Shown here: in pieces, positions 754-9,526 of the stretch
How the letters are laid out: each line of letters starts with the position of its first letter
Position numbering within the stretch: position 1 is the first letter of the stretch
Source of the DNA: a virus
Taxonomy: Duplodnaviria > Caudoviricetes
Strand: one strand, 5' to 3'
DNA: 51,693 nucleotides
IMG/VR virus record: IMGVR_UViG_3300022863_000003
Span: 1 to 51,693 of that record
Position numbers and translations under genes: made by a program
Notes under the pieces: generated by a model
Databases searched by the model: none
What the model was told of the DNA's origin: nothing
What the model saw: only the letters and a program-made list of their open reading frames with translations

Positions 754-1949
754 CCCGCGCTCACTCCAAAATCGGGGCGTCCTCGGCAAGCCGCTGGTTT
801 GCTTGCCCCGGCTCGGTTCGGCTCTGCGAAGGAATTCAGCAAGTCGAATCCGAGTACGCCCGAGAGGGCACGGCGGCGCACGCCTTGGCGTCGCATTGCC
901 TGGAGAACGGGTACGCGGCGAAACGGTTTACCGGATGGCACGTATCCGATTTAGGGGAACTCCGCCAAAAGATGCCCCCTATGTACGCCGAGGGGGAGTG
1001 GGTTTTTGTTTCCGATGAAATGACAACGGCGGTTCAGGTCTATCTGGATACCGCCCGCGCCATCGCCACGGAGAACGTCAAGCGTGAACTCGACGTGGAG
1101 GTGCGCTTTCATCTGGAACAGATTCACCCCGATCTGTTTGGCACCGCCGATTGCGTGATTTATGACCCGGATACCGGAGAACTCTGGGTTCTGGATTATA
1201 AGCACGGGGCGGGGGTGCCGGTGGACCCCGAGGACAACCCGCAGCTCCTCTATTACGCGGTCGGCGCCGCGCTCGCCAAGGCCAACCGGCGGGTCACTCA
1301 GGTCCACCTCGCTATCGTTCAGCCCCGCGCTATGGGGTCGGACGTGAAGTGGTGGGACGTTGACGCTATCGATCTGCTGGACTTCGCTGACCGGCTCGCC
1401 AATGCCGCGAAAGCGACGGAAAGCGAAACCGCGCCGCTCTTCGCCGGAGATCACTGCAAATGGTGCCCGGCGCAGCCGGTGCCGGGGTTATGCGCGGCGA
1501 TTGATGATCTGACGGAGACTGCGCCGCTGGACACGTTTAAGGGGCCTCGCTACGATCCGCGGGCGCTTGCCGATAGCCTCGGCAAAGTGAAGGCGCTGAA
1601 GGGTTGGATTAAGGCTGTGGAAGACTTCGCCCTGGCGGAGATGCAGCATGGCAAGCCGGTCCCCGGCTACAAGCTGGTGGAGAAGCGCGGCGTGCGGGCG
1701 TGGGAAGATGAGGACGCGGCGGTGCGGACGCTCATGGGCGACGGACTGGCCGAGTCGGATATCTACGAGCCTGCTAGGCTGAAAACCCCGGCGGCGCTGG
1801 AAAGCCAAATCGGCAAGACGGAATTCGCCGCACTGGTCGGGGATTTTGTCAAGTCCGAATCGTCGGGTCTGACGTTCGCGCCGGATTCCGATAAACGGCC
1901 CGCGGTCAATCGTGATTTGAAGGCTGACTTTAGCCCGGTGGAGGGGTGA
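750..1949 (+). CDS. DUF2800-family PD-(D/E)xK (Cas4-like) exonuclease
   Basis: HSKIGASSASRWFACPGS, EGTAAH, FGTADC, VLDYKHG, NPQLLYY and CKWCP motifs; typical DUF2800-DUF2815-PolA synteny. Confidence 0.9.
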   Translation: MTRAHSKIGASSASRWFACPGSVRLCEGIQQVESEYAREGTAAHALASHCLENGYAAKRFTGWHVSDLGELRQKMPPMYAEGEWVFVSDEMTTAVQVYLDTARAIATENVKRELDVEVRFHLEQIHPDLFGTADCVIYDPDTGELWVLDYKHGAGVPVDPEDNPQLLYYAVGAALAKANRRVTQVHLAIVQPRAMGSDVKWWDVDAIDLLDFADRLANAAKATESETAPLFAGDHCKWCPAQPVPGLCAAIDDLTETAPLDTFKGPRYDPRALADSLGKVKALKGWIKAVEDFALAEMQHGKPVPGYKLVEKRGVRAWEDEDAAVRTLMGDGLAESDIYEPARLKTPAALESQIGKTEFAALVGDFVKSESSGLTFAPDSDKRPAVNRDLKADFSPVEG

Positions 1950-2138
1950 ATGCCAAATCGCGTTAAGTGGCGGAGTTCGGCCAGTATTAAAGCCGTAAAG
2001 GTTATGCTGGATAGGCTTATACAGTCGTCGCTTGACGGTGCCGTGGTCGAAGTGCCCATCGGCCTCGCCCGGTCGCTATCGGAGGTGTGCGCTCAAGCGT
2101 CACCTACCGAGGAAGGGCACGAATTTTTTTGCGGATAG
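1950..2138 (+). CDS. Small hypothetical protein
   Basis: ATG directly after the DUF2800 stop; 62 aa. Confidence 0.45.
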   Translation: MPNRVKWRSSASIKAVKVMLDRLIQSSLDGAVVEVPIGLARSLSEVCAQASPTEEGHEFFCG

Positions 2139-2196
2139 GTCTCTCCCGTACCCTGCAATCACGCAAAAACGGAAAAATGCAAGAGGAAAAATCAGA

Positions 2197-2769
2197 ATGG
2201 GCATTGATGTCAAAATTCCCAAGTTCCGGGGCTCTTATGTGTCCCTGGACAAGCCGAAGAAGGTGAAGGGCTCTGATAAGGAGACTTTCTCCATCATGGC
2301 TCTGTTCGAGCCCGGCCAGGATATCTCCGTGCTGAAGAAGGCCGCTTTGGAAGCTGCAAAAGAGAAGTGGGGCGACAAGGCCGAGGCTGTGCTGAAGCAT
2401 CCCAAGTTCAAAACTCCTTTCAAGGATCAGGCCGAACTGGTGGACGCGGACGGCGAACAGCGCCCCGGCACGGTGGCCGGCGGCATCTTCCTGAATTTGT
2501 CCAACGTCTTGAAGCCGCTGGTGCTGAATCAGGCTGTGGAGGAAATCACCGATCCTCGTGACGCCTACAGCGGCGCTTACTACGTCGCCAAGGCCAGCGT
2601 CTACGCCTGGGAACACGACGTGGGCGGCAAGGGCATCACCTTCAGCCTCCTCGGCGTGCAGAAGGTGGCCGAGGGCGAAAATCTCGGCGGCACCGGCTCT
2701 CGCGCCAGTACCTCTGACTTTGAGCCGGTGGAAACGGCGGGCGACACGGCGTCTGACATGTTCGACTAA
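2197..2769 (+). CDS. DUF2815-family ssDNA-binding protein
   Basis: Start moved to ATG 2197 (GAGG SD); RGSYVSL, PFKD, YSGAY and GVQKVAEGENLGG motifs; acidic tail ending DMFD. Confidence 0.88.
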   Translation: MGIDVKIPKFRGSYVSLDKPKKVKGSDKETFSIMALFEPGQDISVLKKAALEAAKEKWGDKAEAVLKHPKFKTPFKDQAELVDADGEQRPGTVAGGIFLNLSNVLKPLVLNQAVEEITDPRDAYSGAYYVAKASVYAWEHDVGGKGITFSLLGVQKVAEGENLGGTGSRASTSDFEPVETAGDTASDMFD

Positions 2770-2777
2770 GTGAAATC

Positions 2778-2810
2778 GCTGGGCGCCGGTTTATCCGGCG
2801 CCCAGCTTTT
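2778..2810 (+). terminator. Intrinsic terminator
   Basis: 12-bp stem GCTGGGCGCCGG/CCGGCGCCCAGC followed by TTTT. Confidence 0.85.
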
Positions 2811-2827
2811 CTCGGGGGAGAAAAACC

Positions 2828-2995
2828 ATGTTCTGGCTACAGATTATCATTGACCTGGGTTTCCTGATCGGCGGCGGGGCCATCGGCTACGCCCTTGGCT
2901 TGATCCGCGAGCGCGACAAGAAAATCAAAGAACTCAACGACCGGCCAAAGCGTGACGCTAAAACGGGTCGGTATGCAACACGGAGTGTAAAATGA
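2828..2995 (+). CDS. Small membrane protein (55 aa), not in the ORF track
   Basis: GGGGAG SD; MFWLQIIIDLGFLIGGGAIGYALGLIRER...; ATGA overlap with the next gene. Confidence 0.7.
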   Translation: MFWLQIIIDLGFLIGGGAIGYALGLIRERDKKIKELNDRPKRDAKTGRYATRSVK

Positions 2996-3270
2996 GCGAA
3001 CGCGGTGTCGGAGATAACAGTCAGATCGGCGGCATCGCTGCCGAGGCGCTTCAGCAATATATTGACCGGATCGAAAAGCTCGCGGAAGAACAAGCCGCGC
3101 TGGCCGAGGACGTGAAACAGGTCTACGGGGAGGCCAAGAGCACCGGCTTCTCGCAGAAAACCGTCCGGCGCATTGTCCGCGAGAGAAAGGCCGACAAGGA
3201 AAAGCTGCGGCTGGAGCAGGAGGAATACGAGCTCTATGCCAAGGCCATCTCTTGGGACATTTTCGCTTAA
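2992..3270 (+). CDS. gapR: GapR/DUF2312 (UPF0335) nucleoid-associated protein homologue
   Basis: GIAAEALQQYIDRIEKLAEEQAALAEDVKQVYGEAKSTGF matches the DUF2312 pattern. Confidence 0.85.
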   Translation: MSERGVGDNSQIGGIAAEALQQYIDRIEKLAEEQAALAEDVKQVYGEAKSTGFSQKTVRRIVRERKADKEKLRLEQEEYELYAKAISWDIFA

Positions 3271-3285
3271 CCGGGGGACGGGGAA

Positions 3286-3498
3286 ATGAACGAACGCAAT
3301 CGAGTTATCGCCCTAGCGGTGTTTCTTGTGGTGCAGCTGATCTGGGATATTTTCCTCGTCGGGGGCTGCGCTTATCTGGTCTTTTGGCGTGCTGAAAGCG
3401 GCTGGTGGTTCGTACTGGCTGTCGCGCTGGGGCAATACTCCACAAAACTTTTCCGCCAGTACATCGGGGAAATTCCTGAAGAGGAGGAAACGCCATGA
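3286..3498 (+). CDS. Small two-TM membrane protein
   Basis: 70 aa with two hydrophobic segments; coupled to the next gene. Confidence 0.65.
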   Translation: MNERNRVIALAVFLVVQLIWDIFLVGGCAYLVFWRAESGWWFVLAVALGQYSTKLFRQYIGEIPEEEETP

Positions 3499-3707
3499 TC
3501 GACATCGATGACAACTCGCTCTTGAATATTGAGCTACGCCACAAAGGCAACAACGACGTGACGGAGCTGGTGCGGGCCGTGGTGATTCTGCGCCGGGAGA
3601 ACAAGGAGCTCGCGAAAAAGGTGGACACCCTTGAGGGGGAGCTTGCTGACGAGCGCAGCGGTCGGCTGAACGTCGGCAACCCGGCGGAGGAGGATATCTT
3701 CGGATGA
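3495..3707 (+). CDS. Hypothetical coiled-coil protein
   Basis: GGAGGA SD; ATGA overlaps at both ends. Confidence 0.7.
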   Translation: MIDIDDNSLLNIELRHKGNNDVTELVRAVVILRRENKELAKKVDTLEGELADERSGRLNVGNPAEEDIFG

Positions 3708-4849
3708 CCACGCTGCATCGGGACTACGAAACGCGGTCAGCCTGCGACCTCCGGACTTCCGGCGTCCATAAATATGCCGAAGACCCCTCCACGGAAGTCC
3801 TGTGCATGAGCTACGCGGTGGACGACGGCCCGGTGAAGATGTGGCGCTGGGGGGAGCCGTGCCCACCCGAGTTCATCGAGTGCGCCAAAAACCCCGAGTG
3901 GCTGGCGATGGCGCACAACAGCCAGTTCGAGCAGACGATGGAGCGGTATCTCTTGTCCAAGCGCTACGGCTGGCCGGTCATCCCCCGTGAGCGGGAACGC
4001 TGCACAATGGTTATGGCTCACGCTATGTCAATCGCCGCGAGCTTGGAGAACGCGGCTGCGGCCACCGGTCTGGAAGTCCGCAAGGACACGGAGGGCCGTA
4101 AGTTGATGATGAAAATGGCGCAGCCGCGCCGCGTTACCGCCCCCGGCGAGAAAACCTACGACGCGGATTTAGCCCTGGCGAAGTCCGACAAACGGATTGC
4201 CACGCTTCTCCCCGGGGGCGAAGTGGCGGTCTGGTGGTACACCGCCGAGATGATGGACCGGCTCTGTGAATATTGCGCCACCGACACCAAGGTCGAACGC
4301 GCTCTCGAAAAGCGGCTTATGACGCTGATCCCGTCTGAGTGGGATTTCTGGGTTCTGGACCAGGAGATCAATGATCGAGGGATCTTTGTGGACCTCCCCG
4401 CCATCGACAATGCCCTTAAAATCGTGGAGCTGGAAAAGGCTCGCCTGGATAAGGAAATGCTGTTCACCACCAACGGCGCGGTGCGGACTTGTTCGCAGGC
4501 GGCGGCGCTCCTGGCCTGGCTAACTGGGCAGGGCGTGCCGATGGAGGCCGTTGCCAAGGGGGACGTCTTGGCGGCCCTGGCACTGCCTGGCTTGCCCGAG
4601 GTGGCCCGGAAGGCGCTCATGCTGCGCCAGGAGGCCGCAAAGTCGTCTACGGCCAAGCTAAAGGCTATGCGGCTGGGGGCGAGTTCAAACGGGCGGGTGA
4701 AGGGCACGGCACAGTTCCACGGGGCCAGCACCGGCAGATTCGCGGGGCGGCGGCTTCAGCCACAGAATTTTCCGAGGCCGTCTATTTTGACCGACAAGAA
4801 AAGCATCGCCATCGGGGAAGTGATGGACATGCTGGGGGATGAGGCATGA
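3704..4849 (+). CDS. polA: Family A DNA polymerase, N-terminal part (3'-5' exonuclease and thumb)
   Basis: ExoI DYETRS, ExoII AHNSQFE, ExoIII YCATD; DQEINDRG; GASTGRFAGRRLQPQNFPRP. Confidence 0.92.
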   Translation: MTTLHRDYETRSACDLRTSGVHKYAEDPSTEVLCMSYAVDDGPVKMWRWGEPCPPEFIECAKNPEWLAMAHNSQFEQTMERYLLSKRYGWPVIPRERERCTMVMAHAMSIAASLENAAAATGLEVRKDTEGRKLMMKMAQPRRVTAPGEKTYDADLALAKSDKRIATLLPGGEVAVWWYTAEMMDRLCEYCATDTKVERALEKRLMTLIPSEWDFWVLDQEINDRGIFVDLPAIDNALKIVELEKARLDKEMLFTTNGAVRTCSQAAALLAWLTGQGVPMEAVAKGDVLAALALPGLPEVARKALMLRQEAAKSSTAKLKAMRLGASSNGRVKGTAQFHGASTGRFAGRRLQPQNFPRPSILTDKKSIAIGEVMDMLGDEA

Positions 4850-7815
4850 CCCCCAACGAGATCGCGGACAACATCCGCTTGTTTTATGGCCCGCCGATGG
4901 GCGTGCTGTCGGATTGCCTCCGCTCGTTCATTCGCGCGGCCCCCGGCAAGAAGCTTGTCGTAGCGGACTATTCTAACATCGAAGGCCGGGGGCTCGCTTG
5001 GCTGGCCGGCGAGGAATCTAAGCTGGAGGCGTTCCGGGCGTTCGACCGTAAGGAAGGGCCAGATTTATATCTGGTGACGGCGGCGGCGATTTATGGCGTC
5101 CCGGTGTCCACCCTCAACAAGGAGTCCCCCGAGCGACAGCCTGGGAAAACGTGCATCGCGGAGGGGCAACTTGTTCTCACAGATTCCGGCCTTGTACCCA
5201 TAGAGAAAGTAACTACTTTCCATAAATTGTGGGATGGGGTACAATGGGTGTCTCATAAAGGGACCGTGTGTAACGGCCTAAAGGAGACTATCTGCTATGA
5301 CGGACTTGTCGCTACCCCCGACCACGTTGTCTTCACTTTCGACGGGAGAGAACTCCTATTTGAGCAATGCGCCAGGGAAGAAATCCCCCTCGCACAGACC
5401 GGAGTTGCTGGGGAAGCAATTTGGATGGGTGGTGGTAACTTCTGCGGAGGTCGTGTGGCGGGGGAAGCTAGACAAGCACGGGCACCAATCGAGGTTCCGT
5501 TACCTTCATACTCGTTGCGTCAAGTGCGGCACCGAGAAATTGATCAATTACGACAACTTGGTCCGGGGGAAGACGAAAGGCTGCCAGTCGTGCAGCCAGA
5601 CTATTCACCCCATGCACAACTGGCTCTCGAAACGGCTGCACGCGGCGCACAACCGCTGCGTAAACCCGAGATACCGTCAGTATTCGAACTACGGGGGGAG
5701 GGGGATAACTTTCGACTTCCCGAGTGTACCGGAGGCTATACGGTGGGTGCTGGACAACCTGGCACTCCCGGAGGAGCCCGACCGCAAAATCGAAATAGAC
5801 CGTATAGACAACGACAAGGGCTACGCCCCCGGAAATCTTCGGTTTGCCCCCCAGTCTACAAACCAGATCAATCGTCGGATAACTCGGTCCTCGGAGGTGA
5901 AGGGGATTCGCGCTCCGAACGTGGAGGCTATCCACTTATTTCGAAAGATGTACCCCGAGGTCAAGTACGCCGACGCGACGTTGAAGCGGTTAATGTACCA
6001 CTTCACGGACGCCGAGATAGCCGACCGATTCTTCAATCTTCCGTCGTGCAAACCAAAAGGCGTGTATGGGACATTCTCGACGCCGGACCCCTCCATCGTT
6101 TCACGGTATCTGGAAAGCTAGTGCATAACTGCGAACTGGCCTTCGGATATCAAGGCGGCGTCGGTGCGTACCGTAAAATGGAATCCGGCGCCGTTGGCGC
6201 GGCTACGTTCTCTGACGCCGAGGTGGATGAATTCAAGAAAAAGTGGCGGGCGAAATATCCAAAGATCACGCAGTATTGGTATGACCTGGAAGCCGCGGCA
6301 GTCGCCGCCGTTCGACAGCCGGGCAGCGTTACAGAAGCTGGCGAACCGGGGCGTCAAATACGCTTCCGAAAGTCAGGGTCGTTCCTGTGGGCGCAGCTCC
6401 CGTCCAAACGGTGCCTGTGCTATCCGTACCCCGAGCTCCGAGTTCAATGGCTTGCCCGTGCCCCCGGAAAGCCCGCGCTGATCGAAGAGGCGGAAGAGAT
6501 CATCCCCCCGATCAGGGAAATCCGCAAGATCAAGGCGAGCGAAGTCAGGGAGTACGAACGCGACGGCTGGGAGACATGGCAGAAAGACCAGCTAACCTTC
6601 ATGGGCGTCCACGCGCAGACTAAGCAATGGGTTCGCCAGTTCACGTATGGCGGAAGTCTGTGCGAAAACTGCTTGAGCCTCCGTACCGATGTGCTATCGT
6701 ACAGAGGTTGGATTTCTATTTCGGAACTTCAAGCGGACGATCTTCTGTGGGATGGCGACTCATGGGTCAGCCATGGCGGCCTTATCAGCAAGGGCACCCA
6801 GCCTACCATAGAAGTAAGCGGCGTTCGTATGACGGGGGACCACCGCATCCTCACCATTGAGGGCTGGAAGAATGCATCATCGTGCGAGGGACTTGACCGG
6901 GCAGACGTTCGGATACCTGACCGCGGTACGATACGACGGCTCGGACGGATGCAAATCATATTGGGTCGCGCGCTGCGTTTGTGGAAAAGAATCAAGGTAC
7001 GTGGCTTCGGACTTATCGCGTTCCCGAGGCATGGCCTCACGGTCTTGCGGGTGCAAGTCCAGAGAGCTTATCGGGAAAGCCAATTCTACTCACGGAATGT
7101 CCGGACATCCCGCGTTTCATGTGTGGCGGTCCATGCTGGACCGATGCCGTTTACCGACACATCAGGCTTGGCACAATTACGGCGCTCGGGGAATCAGCGT
7201 TTGCGAGAGATGGCGGCAGGGGTTTCAGAATTTTTGGGACGACACGGGCCCCGGCTATCGCCAGGGGTTAACCCTAGAGAGGATAGATGTGAACGGGAAC
7301 TACACCCCGGAGAATTGCACTTGGGCCACGATGAAGGCGCAGGCCCGCAATCGCAGGGACAACCGAATAATCGGCACGATTTTTGGGGACATCACCGTGG
7401 CGGAAGCCGCGGAGAGGTCGGGAATAAACTACACGACCATCCTGTATCGTTTGGACCAGGGGTGGCCCGACTCCATGTTGCTGATACCCCCGGATTTTAC
7501 GAACAGGTTGTAGATATCCTCGATTGCGGACCTCGCAACCGTTTCGTTGTGCGCCCCGAGGGCGGAGGCCCCGCGATGGTCGTCCACAACTGTACCCAGG
7601 CGATTTGTCGTGACGTGCTGGCCGAGGCAATGAAGCGCCTGGACAAAGTGGGCTACGAAATCGCCTTCACCGTCCACGACGAAATCGTTTGTGAAGTGCC
7701 CGAGGACTTCGGCTCCCTGGCCGAGATGGAGCGGGTCATGTGCGAACTGCCCGCTTGGGCCAAGGGCTTCCCCATAACGGCGGAGGGGTACTCCGCTAAA
7801 CGCTATAGGAAATAG
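4846..7815 (+). CDS. polA: Family A DNA polymerase, C-terminal part (palm/fingers) with two inteins; about 356 aa after splicing
   Basis: Motif A VADYSNIEGR; motif B RQPGKT/CELAFGY and YGGSLCEN/CTQAICRD are restored after splicing; motif C TVHDEIV. Confidence 0.93.
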   Translation: MTPNEIADNIRLFYGPPMGVLSDCLRSFIRAAPGKKLVVADYSNIEGRGLAWLAGEESKLEAFRAFDRKEGPDLYLVTAAAIYGVPVSTLNKESPERQPGKTCIAEGQLVLTDSGLVPIEKVTTFHKLWDGVQWVSHKGTVCNGLKETICYDGLVATPDHVVFTFDGRELLFEQCAREEIPLAQTGVAGEAIWMGGGNFCGGRVAGEARQARAPIEVPLPSYSLRQVRHREIDQLRQLGPGEDERLPVVQPDYSPHAQLALETAARGAQPLRKPEIPSVFELRGEGDNFRLPECTGGYTVGAGQPGTPGGARPQNRNRPYRQRQGLRPRKSSVCPPVYKPDQSSDNSVLGGEGDSRSERGGYPLISKDVPRGQVRRRDVEAVNVPLHGRRDSRPILQSSVVQTKRRVWDILDAGPLHRFTVSGKLVHNCELAFGYQGGVGAYRKMESGAVGAATFSDAEVDEFKKKWRAKYPKITQYWYDLEAAAVAAVRQPGSVTEAGEPGRQIRFRKSGSFLWAQLPSKRCLCYPYPELRVQWLARAPGKPALIEEAEEIIPPIREIRKIKASEVREYERDGWETWQKDQLTFMGVHAQTKQWVRQFTYGGSLCENCLSLRTDVLSYRGWISISELQADDLLWDGDSWVSHGGLISKGTQPTIEVSGVRMTGDHRILTIEGWKNASSCEGLDRADVRIPDRGTIRRLGRMQIILGRALRLWKRIKVRGFGLIAFPRHGLTVLRVQVQRAYRESQFYSRNVRTSRVSCVAVHAGPMPFTDTSGLAQLRRSGNQRLREMAAGVSEFLGRHGPRLSPGVNPREDRCERELHPGELHLGHDEGAGPQSQGQPNNRHDFWGHHRGGSRGEVGNKLHDHPVSFGPGVARLHVADTPGFYEQVVDILDCGPRNRFVVRPEGGGPAMVVHNCTQAICRDVLAEAMKRLDKVGYEIAFTVHDEIVCEVPEDFGSLAEMERVMCELPAWAKGFPITAEGYSAKRYRK
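5152..6129 (+). mobile_element. Intein 1 (326 aa) inserted in PolA motif B
   Basis: Starts CIAEGQLV; block B TPDH; block F VWDILD; ends VHN; +1 Cys at 6130. Confidence 0.93.
5297..6121 (+). CDS. HNH homing endonuclease nested in the +1 frame of intein 1
   Basis: AAGGAG SD at 5281-5286; GKQFG, CVKCG, GCQSC, RCVNP..YSNYGGRGI, IDRIDNDKGYAPGNLRFA..NQINRR. Confidence 0.88.
   Translation: MTDLSLPPTTLSSLSTGENSYLSNAPGKKSPSHRPELLGKQFGWVVVTSAEVVWRGKLDKHGHQSRFRYLHTRCVKCGTEKLINYDNLVRGKTKGCQSCSQTIHPMHNWLSKRLHAAHNRCVNPRYRQYSNYGGRGITFDFPSVPEAIRWVLDNLALPEEPDRKIEIDRIDNDKGYAPGNLRFAPQSTNQINRRITRSSEVKGIRAPNVEAIHLFRKMYPEVKYADATLKRLMYHFTDAEIADRFFNLPSCKPKGVYGTFSTPDPSIVSRYLES
6670..7590 (+). mobile_element. Intein 2 (307 aa) in PolA
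   Basis: Starts CLSLRTDV; block B TGDH; block F VVDILD; ends VHN; +1 Cys at 7591. Confidence 0.93.
6872..7513 (+). CDS. HNH homing endonuclease nested in the +1 frame of intein 2
   Basis: ATG 6872 with GAGG/GGAAG upstream; DLTGQTFGYLT, CVCG, SCGC, THGMS, YGARGISVCERW, TLERIDVNGNYTPENCTWAT..QARNRR; C-terminal HTH-like segment. Confidence 0.9.
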   Translation: MHHRARDLTGQTFGYLTAVRYDGSDGCKSYWVARCVCGKESRYVASDLSRSRGMASRSCGCKSRELIGKANSTHGMSGHPAFHVWRSMLDRCRLPTHQAWHNYGARGISVCERWRQGFQNFWDDTGPGYRQGLTLERIDVNGNYTPENCTWATMKAQARNRRDNRIIGTIFGDITVAEAAERSGINYTTILYRLDQGWPDSMLLIPPDFTNRL

Positions 7816-7819
7816 GGTC

Positions 7820-8020
7820 ATGCACCAAGAATTCACCTACCCCATGCTGCCAATGGAAATCGCCGCCGTACGAAACGGTGTCGCGCCGATCCCGTCAGCA
7901 GAGCGGCTTATGCTGACTGTGCTGCACCTGGACGAGAAGCGGGCGGAGCTGGAAAAGGCGAACGCTCTCTTAGCCGACGGCCTCCTGAGCGCACGGTCCC
8001 GGCCCGTTCAGCGTATATAG
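7820..8020 (+). CDS. Hypothetical protein
   Basis: 66 aa, last gene of the + operon. Confidence 0.55.
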   Translation: MHQEFTYPMLPMEIAAVRNGVAPIPSAERLMLTVLHLDEKRAELEKANALLADGLLSARSRPVQRI

Positions 8021-8021
8021 A

Positions 8022-8074
8022 AAAACGGCGTTTCCTTAACATGTCGCGTTGACGTGTACAGGAAACGCCGTTTT
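8022..8074. terminator. Long hairpin between convergent operons (bidirectional terminator candidate)
   Basis: 14-bp arms AAAACGGCGTTTCC/GGAAACGCCGTTTT plus an inner ACATGTC/GACGTGT stem. Confidence 0.7.
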
Positions 8075-8081
8075 CCTTTAC

Positions 8082-8282
8082 TTAAGCCGGGTTCTCAACC
8101 TGCGCGGCCTTAGCGGCAGCGACGGATTCAAGATTAGCGATGACGGTCCACAACTGCGCGGCCTGCGCCGAAGTCACGGTCTGGCCGGAGATGATGGCTT
8201 CAGCGATGGGGACGATCTTCTCGATTTCCGGCAGCAGCGTGGCGGCGGCGTTGAGAAGCGCGAGGATAACGGTCAAGTCCAT
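8082..8282 (-). CDS. Small hypothetical protein, lysis region
   Basis: 66 aa, hydrophobic N-terminus. Confidence 0.65.
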   Translation of the reverse strand: MDLTVILALLNAAATLLPEIEKIVPIAEAIISGQTVTSAQAAQLWTVIANLESVAAAKAAQVENPA

Positions 8283-8284
8283 GA

Positions 8285-8614
8285 TCAGTTGCTCCCGATC
8301 TTGTTTGCGGTCAGAAATTCCTCGAAAGCCGTAACCGCGGCTTGGGCGGCGGCGGCTTCGTCGCTGGTCGGCGGTGTACCGGAACCGGCGGCTTCGGCCA
8401 GGGGGGCGAGAACGCCGTGAGCGTTCAGGCGGTAGCCCTCGATCTGCTTCACCAGCACAGGGTCCGCCTTGCCGCTGTTCAGATAGACGATTTCAGCCGA
8501 CACGGCCCCGGCATACGCGGTTTCAGCGGTGACGATGGCGGTGGTCGGGTCGTTCAGGTTGGCGCAGCCGGCCAGCAGGGCCAGGGCGGCGAAGGGCAGG
8601 AGAACTTTACGCAT
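8285..8614 (-). CDS. Lipoprotein (spanin candidate)
   Basis: MRKVLLPFAALALLAG-C lipobox. Confidence 0.75.
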   Translation of the reverse strand: MRKVLLPFAALALLAGCANLNDPTTAIVTAETAYAGAVSAEIVYLNSGKADPVLVKQIEGYRLNAHGVLAPLAEAAGSGTPPTSDEAAAAQAAVTAFEEFLTANKIGSN

Positions 8615-8957
8615 TGGACGGCTCCGGGGTAATCGCCACAGGGGCGGGTTCAGTGCCCGGCGCGGGAGCCGGGGCTTCGATTTGCTTCACAACAGCCTCG
8701 GCGGCGGTCGCAACGGGCAGCAAGCCCTGAGCCTGCAAGGCCGGGGTGACGATGCGCAGCAGCCAAGTGGTGAACGGCGGCTGGGCTCCGTTGCTGGCAC
8801 TGGCGATATTCACGGCCATGAAAGACAGGATTTTGCGCGGCACCAGCCAATGCGAGCCGGGTTTCGGCTGCGGCAGGGCGGCGTCGATGGTGGAGGCGAC
8901 GGCGACGACGGCCCCCAAGTAGGGCCAAATGCTGGTCCAAATCGTGGTCAGGTCCAT
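8607..8957 (-). CDS. Membrane protein (holin candidate)
   Basis: N-terminal TM segment; lysis context. Confidence 0.55.
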   Translation of the reverse strand: MDLTTIWTSIWPYLGAVVAVASTIDAALPQPKPGSHWLVPRKILSFMAVNIASASNGAQPPFTTWLLRIVTPALQAQGLLPVATAAEAVVKQIEAPAPAPGTEPAPVAITPEPSNA

Positions 8958-8968
8958 AATTTCCCCTT

Positions 8969-9526
8969 TCAGGAAAGCGCGGCGAGATACCGTGCTATGG
9001 CGTGATCTGCGATTGGTTCCCCAGCCACGCCGATTTCAGTAAGAACCGCCGGATGCTCAAACCCGGGCGGAACCTCTGGTACAATATCTATTCCGTGGCG
9101 AAACATCAAGATCGGAACGTTTTGCAGCACCAAACGCGCACGCCCGCCGATAGAAATCCGGGGGGCGCCGAACGTGAACACGGCCTTCGGCGGCGCCCCG
9201 TCCAGCGTCATTCGTGCGGCCAGCAGCAGCGCGAGGGCGCCGCCCAGGCTGTGCCCGGTGAGGATGATCGGCTTCTTGGGGATAACGGCGTCGTAAATCC
9301 CGTCGAGAGCTTCCCAGAAACCCAGGTGAACCAAACCGAGCATTCTGACCACGCAAGGGATGAATTCCAGGTCGGTGAGCGCGGAAGCGCCGTCGTCGGT
9401 TCCCCGGAAAGCGGCGCAGCGCCCGTACTCGGTATCGCGTAGAATCAGTCGGGCGGATTTGTGTTCTAAATCCGGCTCACACGAATAAGCCTCGTTGCAT
9501 AGCTGGGCGAAGACCCGGGGGTCCAT
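8969..9526 (-). CDS. Class 3 lipase / alpha-beta hydrolase
   Basis: Start at MDPRVF (TGATG coupling); AFRGT, VHLGF, GHSLGG, TFGAPR, DIVP and terminal DH motifs. Confidence 0.88.
   Translation of the reverse strand: MDPRVFAQLCNEAYSCEPDLEHKSARLILRDTEYGRCAAFRGTDDGASALTDLEFIPCVVRMLGLVHLGFWEALDGIYDAVIPKKPIILTGHSLGGALALLLAARMTLDGAPPKAVFTFGAPRISIGGRARLVLQNVPILMFRHGIDIVPEVPPGFEHPAVLTEIGVAGEPIADHAIARYLAALS

Follow-up and report, generated by a model that had tools for sequence, protein, structure and literature searches.

The stretch of DNA considered here, referred to as the window, is the whole of IMG/VR virus record IMGVR_UViG_3300022863_000003 (Duplodnaviria; Caudoviricetes), 51,693 nt in length and estimated to be 84% complete; the sequencing runs matching it are of peat and permafrost metagenomes. 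Within the window, in a replication module that encodes also a DUF2800 nuclease and a single-stranded DNA-binding protein, is a family A DNA polymerase gene (polA) carrying two inteins. Each of these inteins is overlapped, in the +1 frame of the same strand, by a second open reading frame (ORF) that looks to encode an HNH-type nuclease. These nested genes are designated here as HNH1 and HNH2 (Table 1).

Table 1. Features of the polymerase locus, with positions counted along the window.
Feature	Positions	Strand	Basis or remarks
Family A DNA polymerase, N-terminal piece, 381 aa	3704..4849	+	phrog_17 DNA polymerase, E 3e-44
C-terminal polymerase precursor with two inteins, 989 aa, stop-free	4846..7815	+	PF00476, E 6e-11
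Intein 1, 326 aa (978 nt), at PGKT|CELAFGY in motif B	5152..6129	+	Cys1, TPDH (5314-5325), VWD (6064), VHN, +1 Cys
Shine-Dalgarno-like AAGGAG, 10 nt before HNH1 ATG	5281..5286	+	sequence
HNH1, 274 aa, +1 frame, start before block B, stop in block G	5297..6121	+	phrog_374, E 1e-26
HNH1 His-less core DRIDNDKGYAPGN	5798-5836	+	invariant D168, R169, Y176, N180, N189
HNH1 C-terminal tail KPKGVYGTFSTPD, overprinting intein block F	6050..6088	+	KP[KR]G.YG in 51/55 family members
Intein 2, 307 aa (921 nt), at SLCEN|CTQA before motif C	6670..7590	+	Cys1, TGDH (6832-6843), VVD (7507), VHN, +1 Cys
Shine-Dalgarno-like GAGGG, 8 nt before HNH2 ATG	6859..6863	+	sequence
HNH2, 213 aa, +1 frame, stop on block F Val-Asp	6872..7513	+	phrog_374, E 1e-60
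HNH2 His-less core ERIDVNGNYTPEN	7277-7315	+	sequence

Both inteins are in-frame insertions in conserved polymerase motifs, with empty alleles found in the relative L240, in APSE, and in jersey-like phages. Deleting the two from the 989-aa ORF leaves a 356-aa polymerase piece in which motifs A (at 4966), B (spanning intein 1), and C (at 7672) are restored. The sequence features of class 1 inteins, i.e., Cys1, a block B TxxH, a terminal His-Asn, and a +1 Cys, are present in both, and all of the coordinates and splicing-end motifs that a first-pass annotation of this DNA had given for the pair hold. A profile of the family's N-terminal intein region matched 17 PDB sequences, 16 of them intein or Hint chains (best E 0.0014), and Hint_2 was matched in 9 of 21 intein-family members, intein 2 not among them; a single-sequence structure model of the intein was uninformative (a pLDDT score of 33). 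Pfam and NCBIfam yielded no match for the intein-frame middles, in keeping with the earlier claim of no recognisable domain there, nor for either intein or nuclease as single sequences. In a canonical intein, blocks B and F enclose an endonuclease that is read in frame. That full-length layout is absent here; what is found instead, in each intein, is a complete nuclease ORF in another frame, +1, of a stop-free intein, i.e., the out-of-frame homing-endonuclease arrangement.

The +1-frame proteins both fall in PHROG HNH families (phrog_374) and are homologous to each other (probability 99%). Their prior description as complete HNH endonucleases stands with regard to the ORFs and the PHROG matches, but not with regard to the histidine. 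That is, the catalytic His of I-HmuI-type HNH nucleases is missing, and an Arg, residue 169 of HNH1 and 137 of HNH2 and invariant in both nuclease families, aligns with the His of 1u3e. Invariant as well in both families are a Tyr (Tyr144/Tyr176) and Asn residues. HNH2 consists, in order, of an N-terminal Cys-rich beta domain, the His-less core, and a C-terminal helical domain. The top structural match to its AlphaFold model (pLDDT 82) is PacI, with a Z of 6.2 and root-mean-square deviation of 2.1 over 72 aligned residues, which is below the tool's firm-match level; a phmmer search of the PDB with HNH2 gave no real match. PacI, according to the accessible text of two papers, possesses a loop Tyr in place of the His (PMC5714182, PMC3384342). 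Judged from the model, the nuclease thus seems to have an HNH fold of the PacI-like kind, lacking the His, and, because PacI works with a loop Tyr instead of a His, nuclease activity on the part of HNH1 and HNH2 is, by analogy, plausible.

One way that such a layout could arise artefactually is for paired sequencing frameshifts to mask a canonical in-frame HNH intein, and in one related contig, L211, an N-intein is indeed joined to a nuclease by a frameshift. The contig most similar to the window, L136, which is 99.0% identical over 7.4 kb, nonetheless displays 4 substitutions and 0 indels within the two inteins. Contigs from three DNA runs plus one RNA run, which together leave approximately 5191-5490 uncovered, possess a single indel, in-frame, of 12 nt, and located in the extein, and no frameshift; the same register is seen, in addition, in cultured phage genomes. 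With the sister contig and four runs all lacking a frameshift, assembly error is ruled out, as too are the compensating indels that the first-pass annotation had wished to see excluded. Masking by paired frameshifts is refuted, with next to no probability left to it, and the dual-frame layout is confirmed as real.

The intein frame contains 0 stops over both overlaps, as previously claimed. Junctions in the nuclease genes that would create intein-frame stops (T|AA, T|AG, or T|GA), the count of which had been proposed as a check, number 0 as well, versus 9.0 expected for HNH1 and 7.4 for HNH2. Shuffling of synonymous codons produced no stop-free version of either nuclease gene (0/200), with means of 8.4 (HNH1) and 6.1 (HNH2) intein-frame stops, and the third frame contains stops near to expectation, i.e., 14 versus 14.3 (HNH1) and 11 versus 10.7 (HNH2). 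For comparison, the matching frame of free-standing nuclease cores is interrupted by a mean of 5.9 stops, only 2 of 46 being stop-free. The openness of the intein frame across the nuclease genes is a selected property.

What selection maintains can be addressed using the family, as the window and its 99% sister differ at too few sites for a test of their own. Ratios of nonsynonymous to synonymous change per site (pN/pS) were therefore obtained from family pairs, based on 133 dereplicated stop-free elements kept of 140. Over the core of the overlap these are low in the nuclease frame, 0.30 and 0.26 (16 and 11 disjoint pairs, respectively), and high in the intein frame, 1.50 and 1.79 (same pairs), with the intein-frame middle reading from this as passive text that need only stay open. 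At the splicing ends, the intein frame instead has ratios of 0.28-0.33. Substitution patterns among relatives show, in other words, that selection acts on both frames, on each within a separate part of the element. The first-pass notion of a junk linker consequently is borne out for the middle as such but not for the overlap in full, as HNH1 overlaps the splicing blocks B, F, and G too. Particularly, over the last 26 intein codons of the HNH1 family synonymous change (pS) is 0.27, compared with 0.52 for the HNH2 family and a range of 0.52-0.66 for the remaining splicing segments, with a +1-frame pN/pS of 0.69 (286 codons). This lowered synonymous change over block F suggests that the HNH1 tail is itself constrained, i.e., that block F DNA is held in both frames. 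The HNH2 stop, by comparison, falls on the block F Val-Asp codons of intein 2, as had been noted, it being the TAG within GTA-GAT.

The Shine-Dalgarno-like site that had been reported ahead of HNH1 holds, and one ahead of HNH2 can be added (Table 1). Across the family, a start codon together with a Shine-Dalgarno site of -4 kcal/mol or better is present in 66 of 72 HNH2-type elements versus 22.1 expected, and in 43 of 55 HNH1-type elements versus 20.6 expected, a two- to threefold enrichment, where expectations come from random recoding with the intein protein held fixed. The nuclease start shifts among a few sites near block B that each come with a purine-rich stretch of their own, and HNH1's own ATG lies at the position that scores best as a start in 16 of 55 HNH1-family members. 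Independent initiation at the nuclease starts is supported by these patterns. Nothing special was found in terms of hairpins hiding the internal Shine-Dalgarno sites (folding z-scores of 0.02 and 0.88), nor in terms of an internal promoter (1 weak sigma-70-like site versus 1.6 expected).

An alternative to independent initiation is that the nuclease is made by +1 ribosomal frameshifting, i.e., as an extein-intein-nuclease fusion. Many HNH1-type elements do have a +1 frame that stays open from far upstream of the nuclease domain, and in 6 of 55 the scanned stretch contains no ATG or GTG start. With HNH2-type elements, however, a +1-frame stop is usually found a few codons before the conserved start, where an ATG or GTG is present in 69 of 72 versus 36.7 expected, and in the window a stop lies five codons before the HNH1 ATG. 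As frameshifting alone also would not predict an enrichment of Shine-Dalgarno sites, it is a rather improbable explanation.

Phage group I introns commonly contain HNH genes, and the nuclease might instead reside within a self-splicing RNA intron inside of a mini-intein, with RefSeq in fact labelling Sodalis phage SO-1's nested gene a 'type I self-splicing intron'. No Rfam match, however, is seen at E<=1 in positions 3000-9000, and the nuclease ORFs occupy the whole of the middle and overlap splicing motifs, leaving no space for a ribozyme core. An intron furthermore would have no need of an intein frame free of stops, whereas 151 cases retain one and, as a weak indication, an RNA-run contig crosses the intein 2 5' junction unchanged. 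The intron explanation accordingly is very improbable.

Those 151 cases come from a census in which a motif search of fetched loci, one which missed the window's own HNH2, returned 211 distinct nuclease cores. Of these, 139 are nested in +1 and 12 in +2, such that the nesting recurs, as the first-pass annotation had asked about. Another 46 are free-standing, 9 lie between intein halves with a broken frame, and 5 have one half detected. Among the 160 cores that are flanked by both intein halves, 0 are intact in-frame nucleases. Off-frame nesting is, within this sampling of sequences, the rule for what can be described as a PolA/helicase intein family, the nested elements being hosted, at several sites in each, by PolA and by apparent superfamily 2 helicases (a label read from the flanks). 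Two elements in one gene occur in other hosts too, and therefore the window's pair is not unique. Among phage records, 192 of 50,697 match the intein N-terminus. The first 8 cultured-phage polymerase inteins examined all have a stop-free nuclease ORF, +1 in 5 and +2 in 3, and 7 further cultured-phage inteins include 5 with a long nested nuclease ORF and 2 that are mini or partly deleted (13/15 overall).

In the nuclease tree (FastTree), nested nucleases form three groups, two +1 and one +2, with free-standing ones between them and 7 label changes. A helicase-to-polymerase origin for intein 1 finds no consistent support, the splicing-domain and nuclease trees disagreeing. That is, a quick tree of splicing domains nests 14 PolA elements among helicase ones (Shimodaira-Hasegawa-like approximate likelihood ratio, SH-aLRT, of 95), while HNH1 falls outside of the helicase group in the nuclease tree, and a single helicase clade is not rejected (approximately unbiased test, p-AU 0.64; 54 rows, 5 skipped).

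Relatives display also a number of reduced or rearranged forms. The mini allele L015 has lost 639 nt of the nuclease region relative to L016 while keeping the intein, and decayed or deleted versions are seen in L083, L233, and L238. In L112 (647-1641), L121 (461-1482), L124 (461-1482), and L282, intein halves at an RWxG|S site of PolA enclose a related nuclease, the intein frame of the first three containing 21-23 stops; these halves are candidates for naturally split inteins. Split +1 cases (n=7) average 7.3 stops in the matching frame. Broken-frame forms at sites that are contiguous in relatives, i.e., L103 (2235-3216), L275, L280, and L294, may be split inteins, decay, or assembly error. 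The L211 frameshift (2335-3275), which leaves the C-intein stranded, is the sole near in-frame case and is possibly an assembly error. In L092, a polA that has no intein is followed immediately, at ~2500-3150, by a free-standing HNH2-like gene whose start overlaps the region of the polymerase stop; this gene is a possible ancestor or escapee.

Precise empty alleles exist beside occupied ones in APSE, with 4 of 17 records empty. For jersey-like phages, 166 of 650 matches cover the intein and, among the 60 matches listed, many span the flanks only. The residue at +1 differs by state in APSE, with empty GGKI|IEN versus occupied GGKS|CEN (2/2). The nearest intein-free relative of site 2, L240, reads SLCEN|LTQA, such that CEN|CTQ, proposed earlier as the empty target, may be wrong. 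In a regular-expression census of empty motif strings, a Cys is found at +1 in 0 of 66 at the intein 1 site and in 3 of 52 at the intein 2 site. Universal import of the +1 Cys by the element nonetheless is not general, as 6 of 6 empty jersey-like alleles already carry it. The state-dependent +1 residue would reflect either co-conversion of the Cys codon by the element or survival of Cys-less alleles as resistant, ideas which are both discussed for an archaeal intein in the portion available of PMC10643990. Upstream of the site, four occupied jersey-like alleles (L004, L235, L239, L334) read ERKDLRQ and five empty ones (L328-L331, L333) read NFK(D/E)IRQ, a difference that looks like a co-converted tract. 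A second Cys, at 6661-6663, is located three residues before the intein 2 site (GGSL|CEN); this position, unoccupied in the window and in L240, is the insertion site used by relatives such as APSE-1.

The reading preferred here, to which I would assign a probability of roughly four in five, is that these are a pair of functional homing inteins with separately translated nucleases, i.e., two-gene selfish elements. The earlier proposal of a dual-coding selfish element thus gains support from frame-switching selection, from start and Shine-Dalgarno enrichment, and from precise empty alleles in relatives. The polymerase frame would encode an intein predicted to splice itself out, its middle unstructured, and the +1 frame a separate PacI-like nuclease that likely is translated from its own start, with ribosomes presumably initiating internally at 5297 and 6872. 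During co-infection, the nuclease would nick or cut an empty allele near to the insertion site, with repair then copying the element, sometimes along with flanking codons including that of the +1 Cys. As to origin, free-standing phage nuclease genes may have landed at least 3 times in mini-inteins of one family; where the intein frame was kept open the nested form would result, and where it was lost a split intein with the nuclease between its halves.

A number of points weigh against this reading. Translation, splicing, and cleavage all rest on prediction from sequence. Family members are related, so the start and Shine-Dalgarno counts are not independent draws and kinship inflates their enrichment. 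Contigs of RNA run X14 cover both nuclease genes but show neither strand nor level, and the run may hold DNA. With the catalytic His missing, activity leans on the PacI analogy, and the PacI match is modest, an unrelated chain scoring a Z of 5.7, with no match at E<=0.001 from a Foldseek search of the PDB with the nuclease model. The census loci come mostly from nuclease queries, resulting in an under-counting of mini-inteins and of inteins with other nucleases, and the nuclease tree is based on 102 columns and has many weak forks. Lastly, in the window's own population (contigs of the four runs) neither site turned up an empty allele, and therefore the two window copies are at present only putatively mobile.

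The missing His and this lack of empty alleles in four runs, along with the decayed or deleted versions in L083, L233, and L238, are what would be expected also were both window copies real but immobile, i.e., were the nuclease genes inherited vertically, either as relics or as genes for inactive DNA-binding proteins. Each window protein is full-length, however, and keeps the family's invariant Arg, Tyr, and Asn; purifying selection is family-wide; and PacI has its loop Tyr in place of the His (PMC5714182, in the text accessible). Immobility consequently seems unlikely by a wide measure. More speculative, and somewhat short of an even bet, is an extension of the two-gene, homing-intein reading: One widespread PolA/helicase phage intein lineage may never have fused a nuclease in frame, capturing instead free-standing PacI-like nucleases at least 3 times, building start signals into splicing blocks, growing a functional tail over block F, and carrying its own +1 Cys so as to colonise nucleophile-less neighbouring sites. 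If true, then nested, split, and mini forms would represent a living series both for endonuclease gain by inteins and for the origin of split inteins.

The general kind of element, that is, an off-frame homing endonuclease in an intein, is already described, and it is the PacI-like PolA/helicase family that is apparently the new part. The first-pass annotation could not say how widely the architecture had been reported; preprints of 2025-26 describe out-of-frame intein endonucleases, and a nested gene is annotated in RefSeq. No paper on the PacI-like PolA/helicase intein family was found in a literature search that covered subscription journals thinly, and tables of the Gosselin et al. preprint may list related elements. 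The accessible portion of that preprint (Gosselin, Arsenault, and Gogarten, 10.1101/2025.01.02.630785) describes, in actinobacteriophages, inteins whose homing endonucleases are antisense or out of frame; these inteins share with those of the window intact splicing ends, an unstructured in-frame middle, and a nuclease as a second ORF; proposed there, as also here, is invasion by free-standing nucleases, with split and mini inteins as by-products. Its same-strand case, though, is endonuclease VII-like and in frame 3, its HNH cases being in-frame, versus an HNH fold in +1 here. Second ORFs there typically are outside of the splicing domain, whereas HNH1 extends over blocks B, F, and G, and the layout is called rare, whereas in the PolA/helicase family it is the rule. 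A cyanobacterial DnaX intein with a +2 LAGLIDADG ORF (Phillips, DeSimone, and Gogarten, 10.64898/2026.09.14.751524, who credit Gorbalenya 1998) likewise combines a same-strand off-frame nuclease, a putative Shine-Dalgarno site, frame-switching dN/dS (nonsynonymous to synonymous rates), and full, mini, and empty alleles, but differs in being in a cellular gene, in its LAGLIDADG nuclease, and in having a single insertion site.

Closer still, RefSeq annotates a nested gene in APSE-1 (P46 in polymerase P45, NC_000935) and in Sodalis phage SO-1 (gp39 of the gp38/gp39 pair, NC_013600). APSE-1 has the same intein family and layout, its nested +1 protein being 47% identical to HNH2; Caulobacter phage RW, a cultured carrier, has a +1 element with 52% identity to HNH2, and the SO-1 and Jerseyvirus polymerase inteins are of the same family with a +2 nuclease at intein 1's site. 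For APSE-1, SO-1, and Jerseyvirus the nested gene is annotated in some records only, once as an intron, and the accessible portions of two APSE papers do not describe the nested nuclease. The ShiLan domain of phage methylases is an HNH insertion lying out of frame (Arsenault et al. 2025, PMC11855218, as excerpted). It is similar in that an in-frame insertion, itself open, holds an HNH gene in a different frame, and in its sporadic spread, but it lacks intein splicing domains. PacI-type His-Me finger nucleases make up group 20 in the text available of PMC5714182. What would be shared with PacI is the His-less beta-beta-alpha-metal core and loop Tyr, the match being that of the HNH2 model over 72 residues only; PacI as there described is a 142-aa dimeric restriction enzyme, whereas HNH1 and HNH2 add N- and C-terminal domains like those of phage homing nucleases. 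Fractured genes, in which split inteins flank a free-standing endonuclease (Dassa et al. 2009, as cited in the accessible part of 10.1101/2025.01.02.630785), are what relatives L112, L121, L124, L282, L103, L275, L280, and L294 look like; the window inteins are contiguous, unlike fractured genes, for which the nuclease there reported is Vsr-like.

Out-of-frame nucleases of inteins have been presented in the literature as something rare, but in the present family, which is large and extends to cultured phages, they are what is normally found. Because most records omit the nested gene, such inteins appear nuclease-free though they probably are mobile. The family supplies natural controls, i.e., nested, split, mini, and empty forms, for testing a 'splicing first, nuclease later' model of how inteins originated, and provides as well many long genes that overlap in double-stranded DNA phages. 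The window represents one more member of that family, with two elements in a single gene.

Elsewhere in the window, the whole of which was searched, no other inteins or nucleases of the PolA pair's type were found. Compared with L136 over 846-8201, differences are clustered at 1268-1298, 2277-2400, 4754-4798, and 6293-6354, between near-identical stretches, a patchiness that suggests recombination. The polymerase gene itself is split at 4846-4849, in a variable loop before motif A, where the TGA of the 381-aa piece overlaps the ATG of the 989-aa piece (ATGA), with GGGGG ~10 nt upstream of that ATG. Found in only 2 of 49 polA segments, those of the window phage and its 99% sister, this split is bridged without an indel by contigs of two other runs and possibly results in a two-chain PolA. 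After the polymerase, at 8018-8080, is an inverted-repeat stretch that is 97% conserved in L240, where its flanks are 86% identical, and which is possibly a regulatory element.

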